From positions 1-32,415 of the IMG/VR virus record IMGVR_UViG_3300020042_001672: DNA of 32,415 nucleotides, one strand, 5' to 3'. Below, one piece after another: positions 2,696-28,957 of this stretch. Each line of letters opens with the position of its first letter. Position 1 is the first letter of the stretch. The notes under the pieces were generated by a model. It was not told the origin of the DNA. It saw nothing but the letters and a program-made list of their open reading frames with translations, and searched no databases. The position numbers and the translations under genes are program-made. Source of the stretch: a virus. Taxonomy: Duplodnaviria > Caudoviricetes.

Positions 2696-3041
2696 AACTC
2701 CAACCTAACTGACTAGCCCAACGTTCAATGTTTTCTTGATATTCCGCCATCTGTTTACTATCTAACTTTGTTGTTGACTTAATAAGCTCTACAGGATTAC
2801 CACATATTTCACGTTGTTCTCTTAAAAACTTATACCCCATAAGCTCATGTATTGTAGTAGGGTCTTCACCAAGATGATTAGCTACTGAACCATACAATGC
2901 CCATAGCCTTTCGTTCTGCTCTAAAGACCTAACTGTTTTCTCTTCCACAATGTTTACCCTCCATCGTTTAGTAAAATCAAGTGCTTTTATTTTCTCTAAT
3001 AAATTGTTTAGGTTCTGTTGATTTAGACTCCACTTTATCAT
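2688..3041 (-). CDS. ninB: NinB/Orf-family recombination protein
   Basis: 'RSLEQNERLWA' and 'STTKLDSKQMAEYQENIERWA' are NinB signatures. Confidence 0.8.
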   Translation of the reverse strand: MIKWSLNQQNLNNLLEKIKALDFTKRWRVNIVEEKTVRSLEQNERLWALYGSVANHLGEDPTTIHELMGYKFLREQREICGNPVELIKSTTKLDSKQMAEYQENIERWASQLGWSFE

Positions 3042-3156
3042 AACTGTCCTTCCATTTACTTTTAAATACTACACCGTCTTTAGAAGTTGCCTTGTAAGCA
3101 ATGTCATCACCAAATAATTCTTTACATTTAAGTATAAAATTATTTATTGTCCCCAT
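2977..3156 (-). CDS. Small hypothetical protein, 59 aa (MGTINNFILKCKELFG...)
   Basis: Translated by hand; overlaps neighbours in an operon-like manner. Confidence 0.5.
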   Translation of the reverse strand: MGTINNFILKCKELFGDDIAYKATSKDGVVFKSKWKDSYDKVESKSTEPKQFIRENKST

Positions 3157-6805: not shown

Positions 6806-7036
6806 ATGGCAGAATATGACAACACAAACACGTTTACTTTATTTAAGAATGATAAAGGCGATAACCCGAAACGACCAGACTATACAGGCAATGCTAACGT
6901 AGATGGTATTGAGTTTAGAATTAGTGGTTGGATAAGAGAGAGTGCTAAGGGGAAGTTTATTAGTGGCTCTGTACAAATGAAAGAAGGTGACTTTAAACCT
7001 AAACAAGAAGCAATAGATGAGGATGTTCCTTTTTAG
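6806..7036 (+). CDS. Small SSB-like protein (DUF736-like) with acidic C-terminal DEDVPF tail
   Basis: 'LFKN...RPDYTG...ISGW' pattern; SSB-type C-terminus; follows the recombinase and exonuclease. Confidence 0.7.
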   Translation: MAEYDNTNTFTLFKNDKGDNPKRPDYTGNANVDGIEFRISGWIRESAKGKFISGSVQMKEGDFKPKQEAIDEDVPF

Positions 7037-7044
7037 GAGCATCC
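7021..7044. terminator. Hairpin between the convergent ssb-like and pqqA genes
   Basis: GGATGTTCCT-TTTT-AGGAGCATCC 10-bp stem (one G-U pair); no strong U tail. Confidence 0.5.
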
Positions 7045-7058
7045 CCATAGTGCAATAA

Positions 7059-7130
7059 CTATTTGTTCATAACGTACATTGTAACTTCAAAGCCGAAACG
7101 CATTTCAGTAGCTGATGGTTTTGTCCACAT
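7059..7130 (-). CDS. pqqA: Pyrroloquinoline quinone precursor peptide PqqA, 23 aa (MWTKPSATEMRFGFEVTMYVMNK)
   Basis: Translated by hand; canonical MW.KP...RFGFE-x-x-x-Y PqqA motif; AAGGA RBS 7 nt upstream; too short for the ORF track. Confidence 0.95.
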   Translation of the reverse strand: MWTKPSATEMRFGFEVTMYVMNK

Positions 7131-7247
7131 AATTTTGTCCTTAATAAAATACAAGCAACATAGCTTGTGTGTATTATTGTGAAGAATTTTACATACAAAA
7201 GCAAGGAAGAAACATTTAGATTACCCTAATGAAAATACGGAGACATT

Positions 7248-7577
7248 ATGGAAGAGATTATAGATTTTGATGATAATAGTATGCTGGCACATACCCCAGA
7301 GGGTAAGTTGCTAACATGTATACTAACGCAAGCAGTAGAAGATGCTTTATATAGACACACACCTAATAGAACAGGTACTAAAAATATGAAGTATCAGCAT
7401 AAGATTAATTTTGAAAACAAAATAGATGCTATTAAATGGTTGTTTACTAATAGCGAATTATTAGATTCATGCTGTTTTATAGTTAATGTGCATAAAGATT
7501 CTATTAGGAAAAAGATTATAGATATAATAGGTGCAGATGTTATTCATCCTCTTGTTTATAATATTTACAAACCATAA
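7248..7577 (+). CDS. Hypothetical phage protein
   Basis: ORF track; GGAG RBS; 'ILTQAVEDA...AIKWLF' pattern seen in small phage proteins. Confidence 0.75.
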   Translation: MEEIIDFDDNSMLAHTPEGKLLTCILTQAVEDALYRHTPNRTGTKNMKYQHKINFENKIDAIKWLFTNSELLDSCCFIVNVHKDSIRKKIIDIIGADVIHPLVYNIYKP

Positions 7578-7966: not shown

Positions 7967-8196
7967 TGAAACCTATAGCATGGCTTGTAGAAGAGTTTGA
8001 CAGCACAGGGAAACTTGTATGGTCTGGGCTTATGTCGTCTGAACCTACAGAACTGTCATGGCTTAAAGACCTTAAATTGAAACTTCATAATGTAACTATT
8101 ACGCCACTTATTCCAGATACAAAGAATATTATTAAAGTCAATAACACAAAGAAATACAATAGTAAGTTATTAACGGAGGCTTACGGTGGCGATTAA
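7966..8196 (+). CDS. Hypothetical protein, 76 aa
   Basis: ORF track; TAATG coupling. Confidence 0.7.
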   Translation: MKPIAWLVEEFDSTGKLVWSGLMSSEPTELSWLKDLKLKLHNVTITPLIPDTKNIIKVNNTKKYNSKLLTEAYGGD

Positions 8197-8923
8197 ACCA
8201 AACTTATTTATAGCAACACCTATGTATGGCGGGCTATGTTATGGAACTTATTTAGAGTCTATGTTAAAGCTGCAAGCGTGGCTTAATGCTAAAGACATAG
8301 ACGCATACTTTTCATTTTTATACAATGAGAGCCTTATTACCAGAGGTCGCAATACTTTAGTAAATGATTTCTTAAAAAGCGACTCTACACATTTAATGTT
8401 TATTGATGCTGATATACAGTTTGAGGCAAAAGATTTATTAAAAATGATTGACTCTGACGTAGAAATTATATGTGGTCTTTACCCTAAGAAAGAAATTAAC
8501 TGGGGTGGTGTGGCTTATGCTATTGAAAAGAAAGTACCACAAGACCAACTTAAATACTTTACAGGTGAATATGTAGTCAACATGGTAGGTGATGTTAAGA
8601 AACAACTTGTGCCTTTAGATAAGCCATTTGAGATTAAACATGGTGGTACAGGCTTTATGTTAATTAAACGTGAGGTGTTTGATAAGCTAAAAGACAAGTG
8701 CCCATCTTATACACACAATATGAGTGATGTGAATGATAACTCTGATTTGGGTGACAAGGTTACAGAATACTTTACCACTAGCATTGATGAGCAAAATCAT
8801 TTGTTAAGTGAGGATTATCATTTCTGTAAACTAGCTAGGGACAATGGTATTAAGGTTTGGGGTGCAGCATGGGCTCAACTAGGTCACACAGGTACTTATC
8901 AATTTAGTGGCAGGCTTGTATGA
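8186..8923 (+). CDS. GT-A-fold glycosyltransferase-like protein (GTG start)
   Basis: 'FIATPMYGG', 'ESLITRGRN', DxD 'FIDADI', 'GTGFMLIKR', 'LSEDYHFC', 'LGHTG'. Confidence 0.8.
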   Translation: MAIKPNLFIATPMYGGLCYGTYLESMLKLQAWLNAKDIDAYFSFLYNESLITRGRNTLVNDFLKSDSTHLMFIDADIQFEAKDLLKMIDSDVEIICGLYPKKEINWGGVAYAIEKKVPQDQLKYFTGEYVVNMVGDVKKQLVPLDKPFEIKHGGTGFMLIKREVFDKLKDKCPSYTHNMSDVNDNSDLGDKVTEYFTTSIDEQNHLLSEDYHFCKLARDNGIKVWGAAWAQLGHTGTYQFSGRLV

Positions 8924-9501
8924 TAATACCTAATAACATGATTAGTCATGTAGGGAAGATATTTCAAGGTGAGTATGCTATAGGTGCTATGCCAAGTCCA
9001 TATATTATAGACATTGGTGCTAACGTAGGTGGGTTTGCAGTATGGGCACATGAGTACTTTGATAAGCCAAAGATAGATTGCTATGAGCCTATAAAAGAAA
9101 ACTATAATTTGTTAAGACAAAATACAGAAGGAACGGATATAGCCATTAGGAACTTTGCTATAGGCAAAGATGATGGTGAACGTCAGATGTATTATGGATT
9201 AAATAATTGTGGTGAAGCCAGTATGTTTGAAGGTGAAGAGCAAGCTAAAGAGGGTGAGTTAGTTAAGGTGATGAGTGCAAAGAACTTGCCACCATGCGAC
9301 ATTATGAAGATTGATACAGAGGGTGCAGAGATTGAGATACTTGAAAACCTAGTAAACTTTCCTATTATATTTTTAATAGAGTTTCATTCTGCATACAATA
9401 GACGTAGAATTGATGAATTATTACTTGACTATACGCTAATAGAGTGTACAATGCGAGGGTATAATTATGGAATACTTAAATATATTAGGGGTAACCTATG
9501 A
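8920..9501 (+). CDS. FkbM-family SAM-dependent methyltransferase
   Basis: 'IIDIGANVG', 'YEP', 'MKIDTEGAEIEIL', 'IEFH'. Confidence 0.88.
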   Translation: MIIPNNMISHVGKIFQGEYAIGAMPSPYIIDIGANVGGFAVWAHEYFDKPKIDCYEPIKENYNLLRQNTEGTDIAIRNFAIGKDDGERQMYYGLNNCGEASMFEGEEQAKEGELVKVMSAKNLPPCDIMKIDTEGAEIEILENLVNFPIIFLIEFHSAYNRRRIDELLLDYTLIECTMRGYNYGILKYIRGNL

Positions 9502-10073: not shown

Positions 10074-10241
10074 TTAATCGTCTAGTTCTGGTACTTCAGA
10101 GTAAACGGATAAGCCTTCTCCACTAATTTCTATATGGCTACCGTCATCTAAAACTATAATAAGCACGTCTTCCCCGTAATAGGCTTCTGCTTCTACTACC
10201 ATTTTGCCTACCATGTGCTCACATAATTGCTGAATATTCAT
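10074..10241 (-). CDS. Hypothetical acidic protein (probable start MNIQQL)
   Basis: C-terminal part of ORF 10074..10325; AAGGA RBS before ATG 10241. Confidence 0.65.
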   Translation of the reverse strand: MNIQQLCEHMVGKMVVEAEAYYGEDVLIIVLDDGSHIEISGEGLSVYSEVPELDD

Positions 10242-10249
10242 TATTTTCC

Positions 10250-10987
10250 TTATATGCTGATAACTGATTCTTTGGACAACTGTTCCGCTTTTGCTGCTCG
10301 ACTCCATGTCCCACATTGCTGGCATTGAAACCTCTGATAATGTCTAGTTGTAGTAATAGCAGTACCACGCTTTTGTAATTTGCTAGAACCGCAATTTGGA
10401 CAACAAACACTTGCGGAATACGCATTATGATTAGGATGGTGTTTAATCCAACCTTTAAACTTATCATAAACCTTCTCTAACAGAACAACATCGTTTTTAT
10501 TGTACTCTTCCATAGTTTTCCATGCCTTACGATCATCATTCATACACTTAACCCATAAAGTATGACCTTCATGTTCTGTCTTACCACCTAGCCCTAAAGC
10601 TTGTGCAACATAATCTAGTTTGTTAGAAACAAACCTGAACTGTCTTCTTGCTACTTGTAATAAATCTATCTGTTTAGAGGGTGCTGGTGGTGGCATACCA
10701 GAGAGTAAGAATTCTTTGTGTAGTATGGGTATGTCAAACCTAGAACCGTTGTAGTGGACAATGGCATCGGCTTCGTCAAGAAGTTTATGCACAGAGTCTA
10801 GCATCTTTTGTTTACCAGATTTTTGGATAGAGTCAAACATAATTTTAGATTCACCGTACCACTTGGCTGCATAGCAGAGGGTGTAAGATGATTCTAGTAA
10901 TTGGTTTATAGAGATGTTCTGGTCAAAGATACCCCAGACATGAGCAGTATTTGGTGCTACTTCTATATCAATAAGTAATATTTTCAT
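10250..10987 (-). CDS. DEDD 3'-5' exonuclease (RNase H-like/YprB/PolB-exo type) with C-terminal Zn ribbon
   Basis: 'LLIDIE', 'YNGSRFDIP', 'YNKNDV' Exo I-III motifs; CPNC...CQQC. Confidence 0.85.
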   Translation of the reverse strand: MKILLIDIEVAPNTAHVWGIFDQNISINQLLESSYTLCYAAKWYGESKIMFDSIQKSGKQKMLDSVHKLLDEADAIVHYNGSRFDIPILHKEFLLSGMPPPAPSKQIDLLQVARRQFRFVSNKLDYVAQALGLGGKTEHEGHTLWVKCMNDDRKAWKTMEEYNKNDVVLLEKVYDKFKGWIKHHPNHNAYSASVCCPNCGSSKLQKRGTAITTTRHYQRFQCQQCGTWSRAAKAEQLSKESVISI

Positions 10988-11021
10988 ATTAACCTTTGGT
11001 TATGAGTTTACCTATTATATA

Positions 11022-11411
11022 CTATAAAATAGTAATAGATGCAGTTTTATCTTCTTTAAGTTTATTAAAGAATACATCGTATGCTAGTTTAGAATTACCT
11101 ATAAAGTCTTTACCTGCATAGGTATGACCTAATAGGATACATCCATCTGTGTCTTTAGAGGTATTGCCAGCATGTATTCTTACGCCTGTAAAATTAGGTA
11201 CATTAAGAATGTGTGGCATTGGTTTGCCAAAACGAACAGAGTCATCAATAATAACATCGTAAGTTCCAGCAGGAATAGCTGTTTTGCCATTTACCTTTTT
11301 ACCTTCTCTGACTACATCTTCTAGGGTGTAACAGAAATAAACATTGTTGATATACATTCTACCTACAGTATAGGTATCATTGAATTCATATCTTTTTACT
11401 TCAATCAACAT
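11022..11411 (-). CDS. DUF5675-family protein, probable endolysin
   Basis: 'CYTLED...TAIPAGTY...VPNFTGVRIHAGN...DTDGCILLG'; downstream of holin-like genes. Confidence 0.75.
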   Translation of the reverse strand: MLIEVKRYEFNDTYTVGRMYINNVYFCYTLEDVVREGKKVNGKTAIPAGTYDVIIDDSVRFGKPMPHILNVPNFTGVRIHAGNTSKDTDGCILLGHTYAGKDFIGNSKLAYDVFFNKLKEDKTASITIL

Positions 11412-11559
11412 TTTTGTCTATATGTGTAAGTGCTTTAGTTAAAATTTGCATAGCCATCATAAATAAAATAGAGAATCCCATAGCTACAAATAACAAAGCA
11501 ACAACAATAAATTTAAGTATAAATAAACCAATAAAATTAAGGATGTTTAAGACTATCAT
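11401..11559 (-). CDS. Small membrane protein, 52 aa, in the lysis cassette
   Basis: Translated by hand (MIVLNILNFIGLFILKFIVVALLFVAMGFSILFMMAMQ...); ATGA overlap with the upstream gene. Confidence 0.6.
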   Translation of the reverse strand: MIVLNILNFIGLFILKFIVVALLFVAMGFSILFMMAMQILTKALTHIDKNVD

Positions 11560-11942
11560 TTTTTAAGTGTCAGGTACATTCTTTCGCCAATCACAAAAGA
11601 CATACAAGCTCCAGTCATGTCAAGGAATACTGCAACTACAGTAGCACCTACAATGTCAGGGTTGAATACTACAATAGCAGTAAACACCATGATAGCACTA
11701 ATAATGATGTATCTCAATGAAGCACGAAGGTCTACTATCCATTTAGAAGGTTCACCAGTAGGACTATCTAATGCAGCTAAAGCCTGTAGTTTTTCTGCTT
11801 CTGCTTTCATAAGCTCTATACGTTCTGCTATGTTCTGTGGTTGTCCACCTGCACCGCCTGTAAACTTTGCAATAAGACCTCTAGCTCCGTCAGCAAATGC
11901 TGGGACTAAAGCAGGTAAGATTAAACTAATTAAATTAAACAT
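11556..11942 (-). CDS. Holin-like membrane protein (3TM holin type)
   Basis: Hydrophobic N-terminus, 'SKWIVDLRASLRY', two C-terminal TM helices, 'FVIGER'. Confidence 0.7.
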   Translation of the reverse strand: MFNLISLILPALVPAFADGARGLIAKFTGGAGGQPQNIAERIELMKAEAEKLQALAALDSPTGEPSKWIVDLRASLRYIIISAIMVFTAIVVFNPDIVGATVVAVFLDMTGACMSFVIGERMYLTLKK

Positions 11943-11951
11943 TAAAGCTCC

Positions 11952-12455
11952 TTAAAATTGTTTATTTATTTCAAACCCCATTGACCTATCATAAGGATTA
12001 ATACTGCCAAATAATTTTAGTAAAACATTATCTTCTAATTGTTTTTGATAAGCTGCATTTGCAGCCAATCCAGTAGCATCATATTGACCGCCAATAGTTC
12101 CTCTACCCCCTGCAATATCTGTTGAATACTGTCCGCTAACATTAGGATTATTACCACCCATAATTTGAGCTTTAATATCATTAGTAATATATTCTGCATA
12201 AGGCGAAGTATTGCCTTCGGTATTTAATAAACCACCTCTAAAATTATCTTTAGTGACAGCATAATCTCTATAAGATGGTTGATTAACTTCTTTACCAATA
12301 GTAGCACTTAATAACCCAACAGGAGTTTCTGTTGCAGCATTAACATTGCCACCTAATTGAGGTGAGGTATAAGCATTTAAGTTTAAATTTTCATTGCCTA
12401 TAGTAGTCTGTTGTGGCATTAAATTATATTGTTTTAAAAATTCGTCTACAGTCAT
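11952..12455 (-). CDS. Hypothetical protein, beta-strand-rich, ending in ...MGFEINKQF
   Basis: ORF track; TAATG-coupled to the upstream gene. Confidence 0.7.
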   Translation of the reverse strand: MTVDEFLKQYNLMPQQTTIGNENLNLNAYTSPQLGGNVNAATETPVGLLSATIGKEVNQPSYRDYAVTKDNFRGGLLNTEGNTSPYAEYITNDIKAQIMGGNNPNVSGQYSTDIAGGRGTIGGQYDATGLAANAAYQKQLEDNVLLKLFGSINPYDRSMGFEINKQF

Positions 12456-12814
12456 TACAATTCCTTTGGGTCAAAGCCTAGATGATTGGCTACACGCTTT
12501 TGTAGTTTTAAGAATAAGCCTTTATGGCTACAGTATCTATCAGTTTTAGGTGAATCAAGATATACGCACATGTGTATGATTTCATGCGTTAGAGTCATCA
12601 AGACTGGATACAAATGAGTATGACGTGCTGTGCTAATGGTAATAATATGTGGCTCACCTGATTGTGGTGGTTCGTATTGTCCACACATACTGTCATCATG
12701 CACAATTACAAAGTCTACTTTAGATGCAGGCGGAAGTTTATACTCGTCAAAAACAGGAAACTCTATTAAAGCCGAATAAAGATTAGCTATGTTGTTCTCT
12801 GTAATAAATGTCAT
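12455..12814 (-). CDS. SprT-like zinc metalloprotease
   Basis: 'TLTHEIIH' HExxH motif plus a downstream H...F. Confidence 0.75.
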   Translation of the reverse strand: MTFITENNIANLYSALIEFPVFDEYKLPPASKVDFVIVHDDSMCGQYEPPQSGEPHIITISTARHTHLYPVLMTLTHEIIHMCVYLDSPKTDRYCSHKGLFLKLQKRVANHLGFDPKEL

Positions 12815-13140
12815 ATCGTGGCTTTAGGTTGGAATAGTTTAGCGTCAAATACTGCTGTTTGGTTTATCTCTGGAAAGTAAATGTAGACTGCTTGCTTGCC
12901 TTCATAGTTATCAGACTTCCAACAACCTTCATGATTAGGATGACCTCTGTCAGTTGCATAAGCAGCGTATTCATAACCTTGTAAACCTTGTTTTGTAAAA
13001 ATACATTCTTTTGTGGTTAATACTATTTCACCTGCTTCTGTAGCCATGCTCATTTCTTTTGGAAGCTCTTTAGCTTCTGCGTAATCATAAAGAAACACCC
13101 ACAGCAATAATAAAGTAATTGCCATGAGTAATTGTTTCAT
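12811..13140 (-). CDS. Exported protein with signal peptide
   Basis: MKQLLMAITLLLLWVFL...AEA cleavage-like site; two Cys. Confidence 0.7.
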   Translation of the reverse strand: MKQLLMAITLLLLWVFLYDYAEAKELPKEMSMATEAGEIVLTTKECIFTKQGLQGYEYAAYATDRGHPNHEGCWKSDNYEGKQAVYIYFPEINQTAVFDAKLFQPKATI

Positions 13141-13141
13141 T

Positions 13142-13348
13142 TTATTTTCCTATCCAATGATTAACAATAAATGTTATAAAGCCACCTATAGCAGAGGCAA
13201 TTGCCATGCCTGCCCAGAAGCCACCTTTAGACTTGTTTGCAAGCTCTAGGAGAGACTTTATATCTGTTTCCATGCTATCTACCTTGTCTTGCAGGGATTG
13301 AACTTGTGCGGTTAATTTGCCGTACTCAAATGGGTCTATATTACTCAT
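13142..13348 (-). CDS. Coiled-coil plus C-terminal TM protein (XhlA/holin-like)
   Basis: Heptad stretch followed by 'KGGFWAGMAIASAIGGFITFIV'. Confidence 0.7.
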   Translation of the reverse strand: MSNIDPFEYGKLTAQVQSLQDKVDSMETDIKSLLELANKSKGGFWAGMAIASAIGGFITFIVNHWIGK

Positions 13349-13356
13349 TATTGTCC

Positions 13357-16218
13357 TTATGAATATTTCTTTTTACGTTGTTCTGCTTCATACTTTTCAA
13401 GTCCACCACCAAAAAAGTTATGTATAGCCCAACCTACTAATGGTATTTTACTAGGAGTTTTATATTTATAATTTTCTTTGCCTGACAAATAACCTATTGC
13501 ATCTTCTATAGGTGCAGTTATAATATCTAATGGAGGAGCAACTGTTCTAATTGCTGCTTCACCAATCTTACCTTGAGAAAGATATTTGTCATATAAGAAT
13601 TTAGAACCACCAAATAATTTAAGCACGTTAAATGCAAACTCATCTGGTATATCTTCTAAATTAATATCTTTACCTTCAATTAATTTTTTAAACTGTTCTA
13701 CAGTAGTATTTGAACCAGCTACAAGAGTAAGGTATGATGTTGCATTTTTAGCTGCTTGTTTTTTATTGCCAGTTTTATATACATCATAAATGTTTTTTTT
13801 CATTACATCTAATTGTTTAATTGTAAATGATTTAAGTGCATACAAAATTCTACCATTAGGGCTTTCAAGATATTGTCTTGGAAGTTGAGACAATGTAATA
13901 GGCTGTACTTCAGCTAATTCATTAAACAAATAATACTTTACATTATCTGTAATATTACCTTGTTGTAAATCTTTAGCAAAGCTATCAAACTCATCGCCAA
14001 GAACATTTCCATATTTGCCACGCAGTTTTGCTAAACCTTTTTCATTTTTAGATAATGCTCGTGCATTATTAAGAGCTGCATTAATAAATGTTTCTTTACC
14101 AAGTCTGTCAATTGTTCTAAATCCAGATATTGTAAATAATTGATTAAGTAATTTAGATGTACCTTTAGCTGTGCTTAATTCAGCAGAAATAGTATCAAGA
14201 CCTAAATCTTTAATAGTAACTGTTTTACTTCCAACTAAACTTCTAATAGAATTAATATTGCCATTAATAAAATTACTTGTACCTACATCGCCTAACTGTG
14301 TAATAGCTGATTTAGGATTAGCAATAGTAGCAGCATAGATAATATCTTTAGCTGTTTTTACAATCTTGCTAGGAGAACGTTCTCCCATATTAAATCTTGC
14401 ACGCAATAGTGCAGTAACCTCATCACCACTACCGCCAAGAGTATCTAAATCTTTTGCTATTAAACTGCCAATAGATGAATCTAAATTTAATGTTTTGCCA
14501 TTGTCTATAACAGCATTTTTACCAAAGAATTTATTCTTTTCAATGTTGTTAATAGAAGACCTAATATAGTTTTCTAAACTCTCTATAGGTGAAGCATAGT
14601 ATGGAAGTATTCTTTCATCTACTTGTGATACTGTTCTAGATTTAGTAAAGTATGGTTTACCAGATGCAGACTTTTGTCCATACCCTCTTAAATATTTATT
14701 AATAGTATCTGCTATTTGTTCATCAGTTAAATCTTGTCTAGCTACTTTAAGTGTGTTGGCTTTATTAACAAGTAAAGATTCAACTTGACCTTTTTGTTTT
14801 ACACCTATTTCTTTATAAAATCCTTCTAAATCATTTACTCTTCTAGGAAAGTAATTAGATTCATACCCTAAATTTTTATATCCAGAGTCTTTTAGTTCTT
14901 GGTATAAACTTTTTAAAGCATTTTCTACTTTATTAAAACTTTCAATAGACTCTGGTGCAACAGTTTTTAATGTATTTCTAACGCCATTAAAATTACCATT
15001 AAACAAATCAAGAGATAATTTATTTGCAATAGAAGCATCAAACTTTACAATAGTAGATAAAAATGGAGTTACTTCATTTAAATATTGTTGAGTTCTATTA
15101 TGTATATTAAATTCATAACGACCTAATCTATTTGCTATAGGTTCTGCTATTGTTTTTAATCTGCTTTGAATAGGCTCAAGTAGTTTAGAAAATAAAGATG
15201 GGTCTTTGTATTGACTTAACTTTTTAAGTTGTGTAAGTGCTTGTGCTTCTTCTATTGTTTTAGGAATTGAAATTGGTTTATTAAGCGTGCTAGATGCTTT
15301 GTTTAATGTAGCATCATCTATACCAAGTCTTTGTAAAACATAAGGTTTAATATCTTGTGCAGGAATACCTTTGACTACAGCATCTGCTGACTCTAACTCA
15401 TAATTATCTAATACATCATTGTATTGTTTTAATTTAGCTGATTGACCAAAACGTTCAGATGTTTTTTCTATTACTTTAGATATAGGAGACGTAACAATTT
15501 CAGCAGCTTTAGATACTCCTTTAGCTATTGGAGCTGCAACGCTTTCTGCACCTTGAATAACTTGACCTACTACTGGGATTTCTCTTGGTCTAAATGTAGA
15601 CGGTATATTGCGTGCACCTTTTAGAAATCTTAAACTAGCTAGTGCTTCTAATTCACCAAGCATAGGAAGTCCTTCTATACCAGATTGCTGAATAACTTCT
15701 GGAATAGCTTGTACAATTTCTTGACCAGCTATAGTTCTAGGGTCATAACCATATCTAGTTCCTTCTTCAAAACCTAAATTATCTTGAGTCATTTCCCCAC
15801 GAACTGCTTTACCAGCCACGCCAGATAATCCACCAAGAAGTTTGCCAGCTACAGAAAGAGGTGCTTCTGCTGCCCCTATTAATTTAGAGCCAATACCTTC
15901 TTGTGCTTTAGCTATATCATAAGCACTACGTTCAGCTTGTCGTTGTCCTCTAAATTGCAATACATTTTCTGGTGGCATGTCTTCAGGTATACCACGAATA
16001 TCTGTTAAACCTTTTGCATAACTTTCTTTTAGCTTATCTTGAGGAGCAGGTTCTTTAGATTGTTCTATTCTAGATATTAAATGCTTAACAATCTCTTCGT
16101 CAGAATAACCTTCTTTTTGTGCACCTTGCAAATTAAATTTATTTTGTTGAGAAAGATGGTTTGCAATATCAGAATAAGAATAGCCTTCTTTCAAAGCTCC
16201 TTCTAAATTAAATGCCAT
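13357..16218 (-). CDS. Large internal virion / DNA ejection protein
   Basis: 953 aa, helical; last of the ejection-protein cluster in podovirus gene order; duplicated N-terminal 'FNL.GA.KEGYS' motif. Confidence 0.65.
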   Translation of the reverse strand: MAFNLEGALKEGYSYSDIANHLSQQNKFNLQGAQKEGYSDEEIVKHLISRIEQSKEPAPQDKLKESYAKGLTDIRGIPEDMPPENVLQFRGQRQAERSAYDIAKAQEGIGSKLIGAAEAPLSVAGKLLGGLSGVAGKAVRGEMTQDNLGFEEGTRYGYDPRTIAGQEIVQAIPEVIQQSGIEGLPMLGELEALASLRFLKGARNIPSTFRPREIPVVGQVIQGAESVAAPIAKGVSKAAEIVTSPISKVIEKTSERFGQSAKLKQYNDVLDNYELESADAVVKGIPAQDIKPYVLQRLGIDDATLNKASSTLNKPISIPKTIEEAQALTQLKKLSQYKDPSLFSKLLEPIQSRLKTIAEPIANRLGRYEFNIHNRTQQYLNEVTPFLSTIVKFDASIANKLSLDLFNGNFNGVRNTLKTVAPESIESFNKVENALKSLYQELKDSGYKNLGYESNYFPRRVNDLEGFYKEIGVKQKGQVESLLVNKANTLKVARQDLTDEQIADTINKYLRGYGQKSASGKPYFTKSRTVSQVDERILPYYASPIESLENYIRSSINNIEKNKFFGKNAVIDNGKTLNLDSSIGSLIAKDLDTLGGSGDEVTALLRARFNMGERSPSKIVKTAKDIIYAATIANPKSAITQLGDVGTSNFINGNINSIRSLVGSKTVTIKDLGLDTISAELSTAKGTSKLLNQLFTISGFRTIDRLGKETFINAALNNARALSKNEKGLAKLRGKYGNVLGDEFDSFAKDLQQGNITDNVKYYLFNELAEVQPITLSQLPRQYLESPNGRILYALKSFTIKQLDVMKKNIYDVYKTGNKKQAAKNATSYLTLVAGSNTTVEQFKKLIEGKDINLEDIPDEFAFNVLKLFGGSKFLYDKYLSQGKIGEAAIRTVAPPLDIITAPIEDAIGYLSGKENYKYKTPSKIPLVGWAIHNFFGGGLEKYEAEQRKKKYS

Positions 16219-28006: not shown

Positions 28007-28957
28007 CTACTCTGCTAAGTCAGCAATGATTGCGTGAGCACCTTGATTCTTAACTTCTAGTGTGTATTCTACTAAAAGTTGAGTTACATCTGCGTCACCA
28101 GATTTAGCCAATTCATTTGTTTGGAATGGGCGTAAATATGCAACTGCTGCGTACTCTGGGTCAAGAACAAATGCTACTTCACCGCTATCACCAGAATCTG
28201 CAGTCATGAATCTGTTAGGAACAACAGATAATGTACCGAAGTCTGATAAGTAAATATCAGCTGCACCGATGATTGTTGTAGGTTTGTCACTTGGAGCCAT
28301 GTAACGTTGAGCAGCAACACCAGTAAACGCTGAAATGTTTACTTTTTGTGTTGGAGTTGTCATAAGAATGGTTGGAGTACCACCATTAGTATATGCAGAT
28401 TTAACTGCTGACTTAATCATTGCTTCTGTGAAAGCTGCGTCTGTACCAGATACACGAGCTGTAGTGCCTAATGAACCAGCAGTACCGTTAGTGCCACCAA
28501 CGTAGTTAGAATTTAACCAAGTTTGTAGACCACCAAGTGTACGAGCTGTAGTAGCATTACCTGCTGATGCAACTGTGTTGTTTAAAAGTGCTTTTTCCAT
28601 ATCACGTTTAAGTTCGCTAGAAACTTTAGCTAATTGGTAAGCCTTTTCAGATTTACGACCAGCTTTGTTTACTGCTTCCATAGTGCCAGAAATCTTAATT
28701 GTCTTTTCAGAAATTTGAGTTCTGTTACCTACGCGTGTTGTTGGAGTTACTGTAATATCAGAAGCTGTTGCACCTTCAACTGCTGCATTAGCTGCTGCGG
28801 CTGCAAGTGAGTCAAGTTGCCATTCGTGATATGTTGCTGTTGCTTTTGTTTTACCAATAGAACTCATAAATGGAGTTTCTGTAGGTGAGATGTTGTAAAT
28901 AACATCTGTTAAATCTTCTCTAATACCGATAGCGGTATAGGTTTGGAACGTTGCCAT
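28007..28957 (-). CDS. Major capsid protein (DUF5309/SU10-like)
   Basis: 'REDLTDVIYNISPTETPF', 'HEWQLDSL', 'NRTQI', 'ELKRDME', 'EYTLEV'; follows the scaffold. Confidence 0.9.
   Translation of the reverse strand: MATFQTYTAIGIREDLTDVIYNISPTETPFMSSIGKTKATATYHEWQLDSLAAAAANAAVEGATASDITVTPTTRVGNRTQISEKTIKISGTMEAVNKAGRKSEKAYQLAKVSSELKRDMEKALLNNTVASAGNATTARTLGGLQTWLNSNYVGGTNGTAGSLGTTARVSGTDAAFTEAMIKSAVKSAYTNGGTPTILMTTPTQKVNISAFTGVAAQRYMAPSDKPTTIIGAADIYLSDFGTLSVVPNRFMTADSGDSGEVAFVLDPEYAAVAYLRPFQTNELAKSGDADVTQLLVEYTLEVKNQGAHAIIADLAE

Follow-up and report, generated by a model that had tools for sequence, protein, structure and literature searches.

PqqE, together with PqqD, cross-links the Glu and the Tyr of the peptide PqqA, and one peptide is consumed per PQQ. 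PQQ is the cofactor of XoxF/MxaF; methanol dehydrogenase is its main user and the energy entry of the methylotrophs considered here. In the Methylophilaceae, the available text of PMC4109929 gives 3–12 host copies of pqqA against a single pqqBCDE cluster, so that hosts multiply pqqA but not pqqBCDE. We found pqqA in 151/151 host-family genomes, with at least two matches in 147/151. The closest viral case is the Lake Baikal population VP_266, for whose PqqA Coutinho et al. (2020; PMC7678222, available text) proposed an AMG role in raising methanol oxidation; the presence of pqqA in a phage and its interpretation as an AMG have thus been published since 2020. A second report, in its available text, lists viral pqqA, pqqD and pqqE from reservoir sediment among phosphorus-cycling AMGs; pqqA is virus-encoded there as in our window, but it is read as phosphate solubilisation, without gene-level analysis (PMC13188868). 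The promoter, selection and prevalence of viral PqqA are not treated in the available sections of PMC7678222. The main texts of PMC9004378, PMC10580990, PMC8024684 and PMC8163748 do not mention pqqA, and PQQ is named there only as a medium component, the published OM43 medium holding 1 nM of it.

Here we describe a pqqA cassette in a phage window of 32,415 nucleotides, the whole stretch of DNA that was analysed. Like VP_266, as given in the available text, it combines a phage PqqA with a predicted Methylophilaceae virus and a methanol-oxidation reading as an AMG. In contrast to VP_266, a T4-like virus with a methanol dehydrogenase gene of its own, the window belongs to a small phage with an SU10-type capsid and carries pqqA alone. 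What is new here is the host-type box ahead of phage pqqA, and the unannotated pqqA in nine cultured phage records. The features of the locus are as follows.

6806–7036, plus strand: SSB (single-strand DNA binding protein; phrog_18154, E 1e-14), the convergent neighbour, outside the cassette
7019–7046, both strands: downstream hairpin (minus strand, z −4.9; plus strand, z −5.1), overlapping the final SSB codons
7059–7130, minus strand: pqqA ORF, 23 aa plus TAG, with Glu15-x3-Tyr19 (PF08042, TIGR02107)
7138–7142, minus strand: Shine-Dalgarno AAGGA, 7 nt ahead of the ATG
7151–7168, minus strand: leader hairpin of 6 bp (−7.7 kcal/mol, z −2.0), predicted at the 5' end of the transcript
7176–7181, minus strand: candidate −10 CACAAT, 61 nt from the box start and 17 nt after TTGCTT
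7199–7204, minus strand: candidate −35 TTGCTT, with TTGACT, TTGATT or TTGCTT at equal offset in relatives
7226–7242, no strand assigned: 17-bp palindromic "pqq box", a candidate operator, its right end overlapping the GGAG ahead of the 109-aa gene
from 7248, opposite to pqqA: divergent 109-aa gene, preceded by GGAG

The pqqA cassette and its phage genome

The initial annotation had proposed a stand-alone phage pqqA in a minus-strand ORF of 72 nt, and the frame from 7130 to 7059 does translate as claimed. The peptide scored far over the curated cut-offs of both PqqA family models (43.3 bits against 21.1 for PF08042, 40 bits against 20 for TIGR02107), and the Glu-x3-Tyr pair of the ~23-aa PqqA was present near its C-terminus. 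That this ORF is pqqA is close to certain. The AAGGA ribosome-binding site was located where proposed, and an SD-like word stood ahead of 101/102 dereplicated viral pqqA copies. The orientation was likewise borne out: pqqA runs against ERF-YqaJ-SSB and against the next gene at 7248. Tblastn with host PqqB, C, D and E returned no match in the window at E 1e-3, in line with the claim that no further pqq gene is present; the gene thus lacks the adjacent pqqB, C, D and E of a pqqABCDE operon and is of the orphan type common in the host family. The peptide is one residue away from a common host form and 100% identical to that of phage Venkman.

When set against the orphan pqqA of Methylophilaceae (PF08042/TIGR02107; PMC4109929, available text), the cassette shares a near-identical peptide, the RBS, a box 61 nt before the −10, a short monocistronic layout and a downstream hairpin. 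It differs in being phage-borne, in its shorter leader, in a recognisable −35 and in having no clear second half-site, and its downstream hairpin, unlike that of the host gene, is without a U-tract and forms part of the SSB stop region. Many other phages depart from the host arrangement in another way, with the box ~38 nt before the −10.

The window record is a linear virus with a completeness of ~85%. Profile searches with its 48 proteins found ERF, YqaJ, SSB, endolysin, an SU10-type capsid and portal, and pqqA is therefore a host metabolic gene with viral neighbours in a genuine phage genome, as is asked of an AMG. No family for the PqqA peptide was found in PHROGs, and Rfam gave no match in the window at gathering score, two weak matches near the pqqA locus being at chance level. 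Downstream of the endolysin-like gene, positions 8186–9501 hold a 245-aa protein with a weak Anp1 match (possibly glycosyltransferase-like), followed by an FkbM-family methyltransferase. The nearest record to the phage is MW202481, an uncultured spring phage (YqaJ 90%, capsid 80%), and the nearest cultured phage with a named host, judged by capsid, is Methylophilales phage Venkman (61%). The host is likely a methanol-eating bacterium; since MW202481 is uncultured and the capsid of Venkman only 61% identical, we infer the host family, Methylophilaceae, rather than read it from a close isolate.

Small multi-copy host genes can be integration targets, by analogy with tRNA genes, and on this analogy the locus might be an attachment-site remnant at host pqqA; it might also be a neutral passenger or an assembly chimera. 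With the window ~85% complete, an integrase could lie outside it. However, no integrase was found among the 48 window proteins, and the tyrosine integrase family PF00589 was found in 0/5 complete cultured phage genomes. Between the window's CDS and the closest host CDS sampled, 4/69 bases differ; the flanks are phage-like, and the same arrangement recurs in isolates and in many independent contigs, which rules out the chimera that the initial annotation had named as its refuter. This group of explanations is hardly tenable and largely refuted.

Promoter elements, hairpins and the pqq box

The upstream regions of host pqqA have in common a 17-bp palindrome with a consensus of about YTMATGAWWWTCATKAR, present in 102/111 sequences, a circular figure since these formed the training set. 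In 87/102 of the host promoters a −10-like hexamer followed 61–62 nt after the box start. In Ca. Methylopumilus universalis the box stood ahead of all three pqqA copies, of pqqB, which has no pqqA in front, and of a TonB receptor just past the pqq operon, and the remaining matches to the box pattern in this genome lay mostly within coding sequence. The gene of this TonB-dependent receptor (10839–13169 of the retrieved segment), with a box of its own at 13.9 bits, comes after the pqq operon and an MFS-like gene; judged by its sequence, the receptor possibly takes up PQQ. Small host-family genomes carry two tandem pqqA ~200 nt apart, with a box ahead of the first in 3/6 within the range scanned. 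No box was found ahead of xoxF in M. universalis. Among xoxF/mxaF-type promoters, 2/11 upstream regions exceeded 8 bits, one site ending in an RBS-like GGAG and the other lying 385 nt away; as both are unconvincingly placed, we set aside the box as a methanol-dehydrogenase operator.

With the matrix trained on host promoters only, the site at 7226–7242 scored 17.4 bits, the best of the whole window (32 kb; runner-up 13.0), and CACAAT sits at the same distance from it as in hosts. The window thus carries a palindromic box of host type, spaced from the −10 as in host promoters; this candidate operator is absent from the initial annotation. The second and third scores in the window (10237–10253, 13.0 bits; 13344–13360, 11.5 bits) fall on the RBS plus ATG of minus-strand genes and were judged look-alikes. 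A box pattern drafted from the window's own site was not counted, because 0.58 matches were expected by chance.

Boxes of at least 8 bits were present in 64/100 dereplicated viral pqqA upstream regions, against 1.0% of shuffles, 1/97 downstream stretches and 5/480 upstream regions of other phage genes. The box was absent or weak in 36/100 viral copies, that of MEP402 included, and in 25/71 relatives gathered through the neighbouring SSB. It tracked the peptide type, occurring with 18/22 Methylophilaceae-like viral pqqA vs 3/55 of other types. Of the 70 viral copies that have a box, 51 carried a −10-like hexamer at 37–39 or 60–62 nt, with peaks at 38 and 61, and the 38-nt class places the box where hosts carry a weaker second site. 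Since the window has this box at host spacing, since the box is rare ahead of other phage genes, and since in M. universalis it marks pqqA and pqqB but not xoxF, the phage cassette is likely wired into the host PQQ regulon. A NarL-type protein common to 4/4 hosts (75–94% identity) is a candidate regulator; a search of host pqqA neighbourhoods found no regulator gene recurring tellingly beside pqqA. No treatment of the pqq box or of its occurrence in phages was found in the titles and abstract openings of the accessible literature, which covers few subscription journals.

In the phage family of the window, one half of the box also serves the divergent gene as its RBS; the variants of the other half among relatives all fall within the host variant set. 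The overlap with the RBS at 7248, in a phage without PQQ enzymes, could point to a decoy or sensor: the peptide would tie up PqqD/PqqE, the phage boxes would titrate the regulator, or the bound regulator would control the divergent gene and so report host state. But both cross-linked residues are kept in every copy read, the peptide is substrate-like in being only one residue off a common host form, and elsewhere among phages the box is not constantly paired with a divergent gene. We consider such a role unlikely.

The promoter TTGCTT-17-CACAAT had been proposed from the window alone. Both hexamers are at the claimed places, but a consensus promoter scan did not list the promoter, so that taken alone the call is weak; in addition, two other hexamers slightly outscore CACAAT on a simple −10 matrix. 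Conservation among relatives lends the call support at the level of sequence: TTGACT, TTGATT or TTGCTT stood at the same offset in 37/37 SSB-anchored relatives that share the distal box, a set that was not dereplicated and has many near-identical members, and CATAAT occupies the −10 offset in many relatives. With its recognisable −35, the window promoter may be able to work without an activator.

Of the leader hairpin that had been described at 7151–7168, the stem is present; the loop letters had been given from the plus strand. Its support is modest, with the z-score listed above and 7/200 shuffles folding as well. Viral pqqA leaders had a median z of −1.66, vs 0.17 in a control stretch, and the hairpin possibly stabilises the transcript. 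The downstream hairpin, described at 7021–7044, was recovered and is strong on either strand. As for an intrinsic terminator, no U-tract was found on either strand of 7021–7044 and a terminator scan made no call there. Its pairs are mostly kept in 37 distinct relatives, with the register partly shifted through 1-nt indels, and it is likely a 3' end or a barrier between the convergent SSB and pqqA transcripts.

Other pqqA copies carry a candidate structured leader RNA that is absent from the window. It consists of CUCAAG, a 5-bp stem enclosing a variable hairpin, and UGA-N-CUG, ~30–60 nt before the start. A pattern without pqqA letters matched 69 viral stretches, 48 of them followed by pqqA, and 12/151 host-family genomes, all of 1.2–1.4 Mb. 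In 24 distinct pqqA-linked copies the stem was 100% paired, with 31 double-sided changes and 0/500 shuffles as high, figures to be read with the pattern partly constraining the letters. Rfam gave no match at gathering score in 10 loci. This RNA is a possible riboswitch or leader.

Spread and selection of pqqA among phages

Relatives were gathered through DNA patterns and through the neighbouring SSB protein. In the SSB-anchored set 79/80 loci were processed, and five were not evaluable (three too short, two with the SSB end not located), leaving 74. An intact antisense pqqA lay within 600 nt in 73/74, and the remaining locus had a motif match elsewhere. Glu-x3-Tyr, which was not selected for in this set, was kept in 73/73 copies. 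The 32 distinct CDS gave pS 0.46, pN 0.046 and pN/pS 0.10; an earlier estimate from the first DNA pattern (pN/pS 0.053/0.512) was discarded, because that pattern itself fixes amino acids. The synonymous-biased variation at the same locus for which the initial annotation had proposed a check was seen. When a pattern fixing codons 1–13 only was used, 120 stretches were retrieved, and 119/119 of the matches read had Glu-x3-Tyr and a stop after codon 23. Arg11 was encoded by AGA in 31/112 distinct viral CDS vs 0/112 host CDS. Taken together, the pN/pS of 0.10, the constancy of ExxxY and the AGA codon in viral CDS show that selection acts on the peptide and not on base identity with the host. Purifying selection in phages, as is asked of an AMG, was thus found for pqqA.

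These data also bear on a role of the locus as RNA, in which early-operon read-through would be antisense to host pqqA mRNA, or minus-strand RNA would dampen the SSB operon. The antisense placement beside SSB in 73/74 relatives and a hairpin that folds on both strands would fit such a role. Against it, variation is mostly synonymous, the AGA codon at Arg11 is a two-base silent change that breaks pairing with host mRNA, the RBS and the stop are conserved, and both neighbours are on the pqqA strand in 19/102 loci. We hold this explanation to be very improbable.

The strict pqqA pattern gave an estimate of ~1500 stored IMG/VR stretches, which are stretches and not genomes. Neighbour clustering placed pqqA, in both orientations, in several unrelated settings: next to recombination genes on the opposite strand, after a capsid-like gene, and surrounded by genes of T4-like type, as assigned from cluster sequences. 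Matches to pqqBCDE numbered 0 in 247 viral pqqA loci, 130 of them at least 4 kb, and pqqE was absent from 5/5 complete cultured phage genomes; two regex matches to "pqqC" in viral loci were judged chance. A second PqqA pattern matched ~140 IMG/VR stretches, many with PqqA types unlike those of Methylophilaceae, so phage pqqA is not confined to the window's peptide type. Many viral contigs carry such other types (an aromatic residue at position 7, often an MKWE start), without a box and without nearby pqqBCDE.

Tblastn of PqqA against 50,697 phage records gave 12 matches: nine cultured Methylophilaceae/Methylophilales phages, MW202481, and two records of "Acinetobacter phage MD-2021a". The latter two were dropped, since the one examined holds a pqqABCDE operon and belongs to an assembly of several contigs that is likely bacterial. 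None of the other ten records annotates pqqA, which agrees with the proposal that a stand-alone phage pqqA is overlooked by gene callers. The cultured carriers include Venkman, P19250A, MEP301, MEP401/402 and Melnitz, and their peptides are 77–100% identical to that of the window. According to the available text of PMC7678222, these AMGs are all missing from P19250A; this is contradicted by pqqA at 28085–28153 of its genome. Venkman resembles the window, with pqqA antisense beside YqaJ recombination genes and a box of 17.9 bits, whereas the other cultured carriers have different gene neighbourhoods and MEP402 is without a box. Opposite pqqA, the records of Melnitz and MW202481 annotate a hypothetical protein that is likely a shadow call (sites 2998–3069 and 2119–2190 of the retrieved segments). 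In Melnitz pqqA lies directly ahead of a tRNA-Leu gene.

A wider account is that unrelated podo-, sipho- and T4-like Methylophilaceae phages repeatedly took up pqqA plus the host operator and joined the host regulon with two promoter geometries that differ by about two helical turns, which would make pqqA a near-core, host-gated micro-AMG overlooked in cultured carriers. We regard this account as evenly balanced between true and false.

A proposed precursor supply to the host

In our favoured reading, the window holds an intact, phage-borne version of the orphan pqqA cassette of the host, which is likely switched by the host and likely supplies PqqBCDE with precursor and methanol dehydrogenase with PQQ; we consider this reading as a whole reasonably probable. 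In this mechanism the host would activate and transcribe the cassette through its PQQ regulator and RNA polymerase, like one more pqqA copy, and replication of the phage genome would multiply it. The phage peptide would then add precursor for host PqqBCDE and so maintain the PQQ supply of methanol dehydrogenase in infected cells. Supply of precursor to host PqqBCDE appears to be the best reading of phage pqqA; binding of the regulator, transcription in infection, processing to PQQ and a benefit to the phage are proposed parts of it.

Two points weigh on this mechanism. PQQ is recycled by methanol dehydrogenase, which is abundant before infection, and it is therefore not self-evident that a single lytic cycle would call for new PQQ. 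Furthermore, PqqB and PqqC are named rate-limiting in another methylotroph in the available text of PMC9851590, and limitation by precursor is thus not established. RNA is the recorded source of 14/17 listed runs, all of them available as contigs. In four lake-water RNA runs one contig spans 6799–7092 (4 differences) and another 6806–7144 (11 differences), and these contigs give neither strand nor level. Deep short RNA contigs over the pqqA ORF were not counted as expression of the window phage, because their flanks are foreign, from the host or other phages.

The peptide might also become PQQ with a benefit outside methanol oxidation, as an antioxidant, as the cofactor of another PQQ dehydrogenase, or in replacing PQQ leaked from infected cells. 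The five host genomes examined hold more PQQ-type dehydrogenase matches under the TIGR03075 cut-off, the box marks PQQ synthesis and the TonB receptor and not xoxF promoters, and many of the stretches matching the second pattern have PqqA types unlike Methylophilaceae. On the other hand, XoxF/MxaF-type enzymes over the TIGR03075 cut-off were found in 5/5 hosts, methylotrophs are the hosts of all nine cultured carriers, and methanol dehydrogenase is the established main user of PQQ. A benefit of this kind seems to us rather unlikely. Supply of PQQ to methanol dehydrogenase remains our preferred reading, and because cultured phage-host pairs carry pqqA (Venkman and Melnitz with H5P1, MEP301 with FZCC2181, P19250A with IMCC19250), the effect of this AMG on the host cofactor pool is directly testable.

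From the box together with a Methylophilaceae-type peptide, the host of an uncultured phage contig can be predicted at little cost. The box also gives access to the way Methylophilaceae regulate PQQ synthesis, of which no description was found in the literature searched. If our reading is true, a gene of 23 codons would rank with the commonest metabolic genes of phages whose methylotroph hosts abound in fresh water and the sea, and pqqA would tie infection to methanol turnover.
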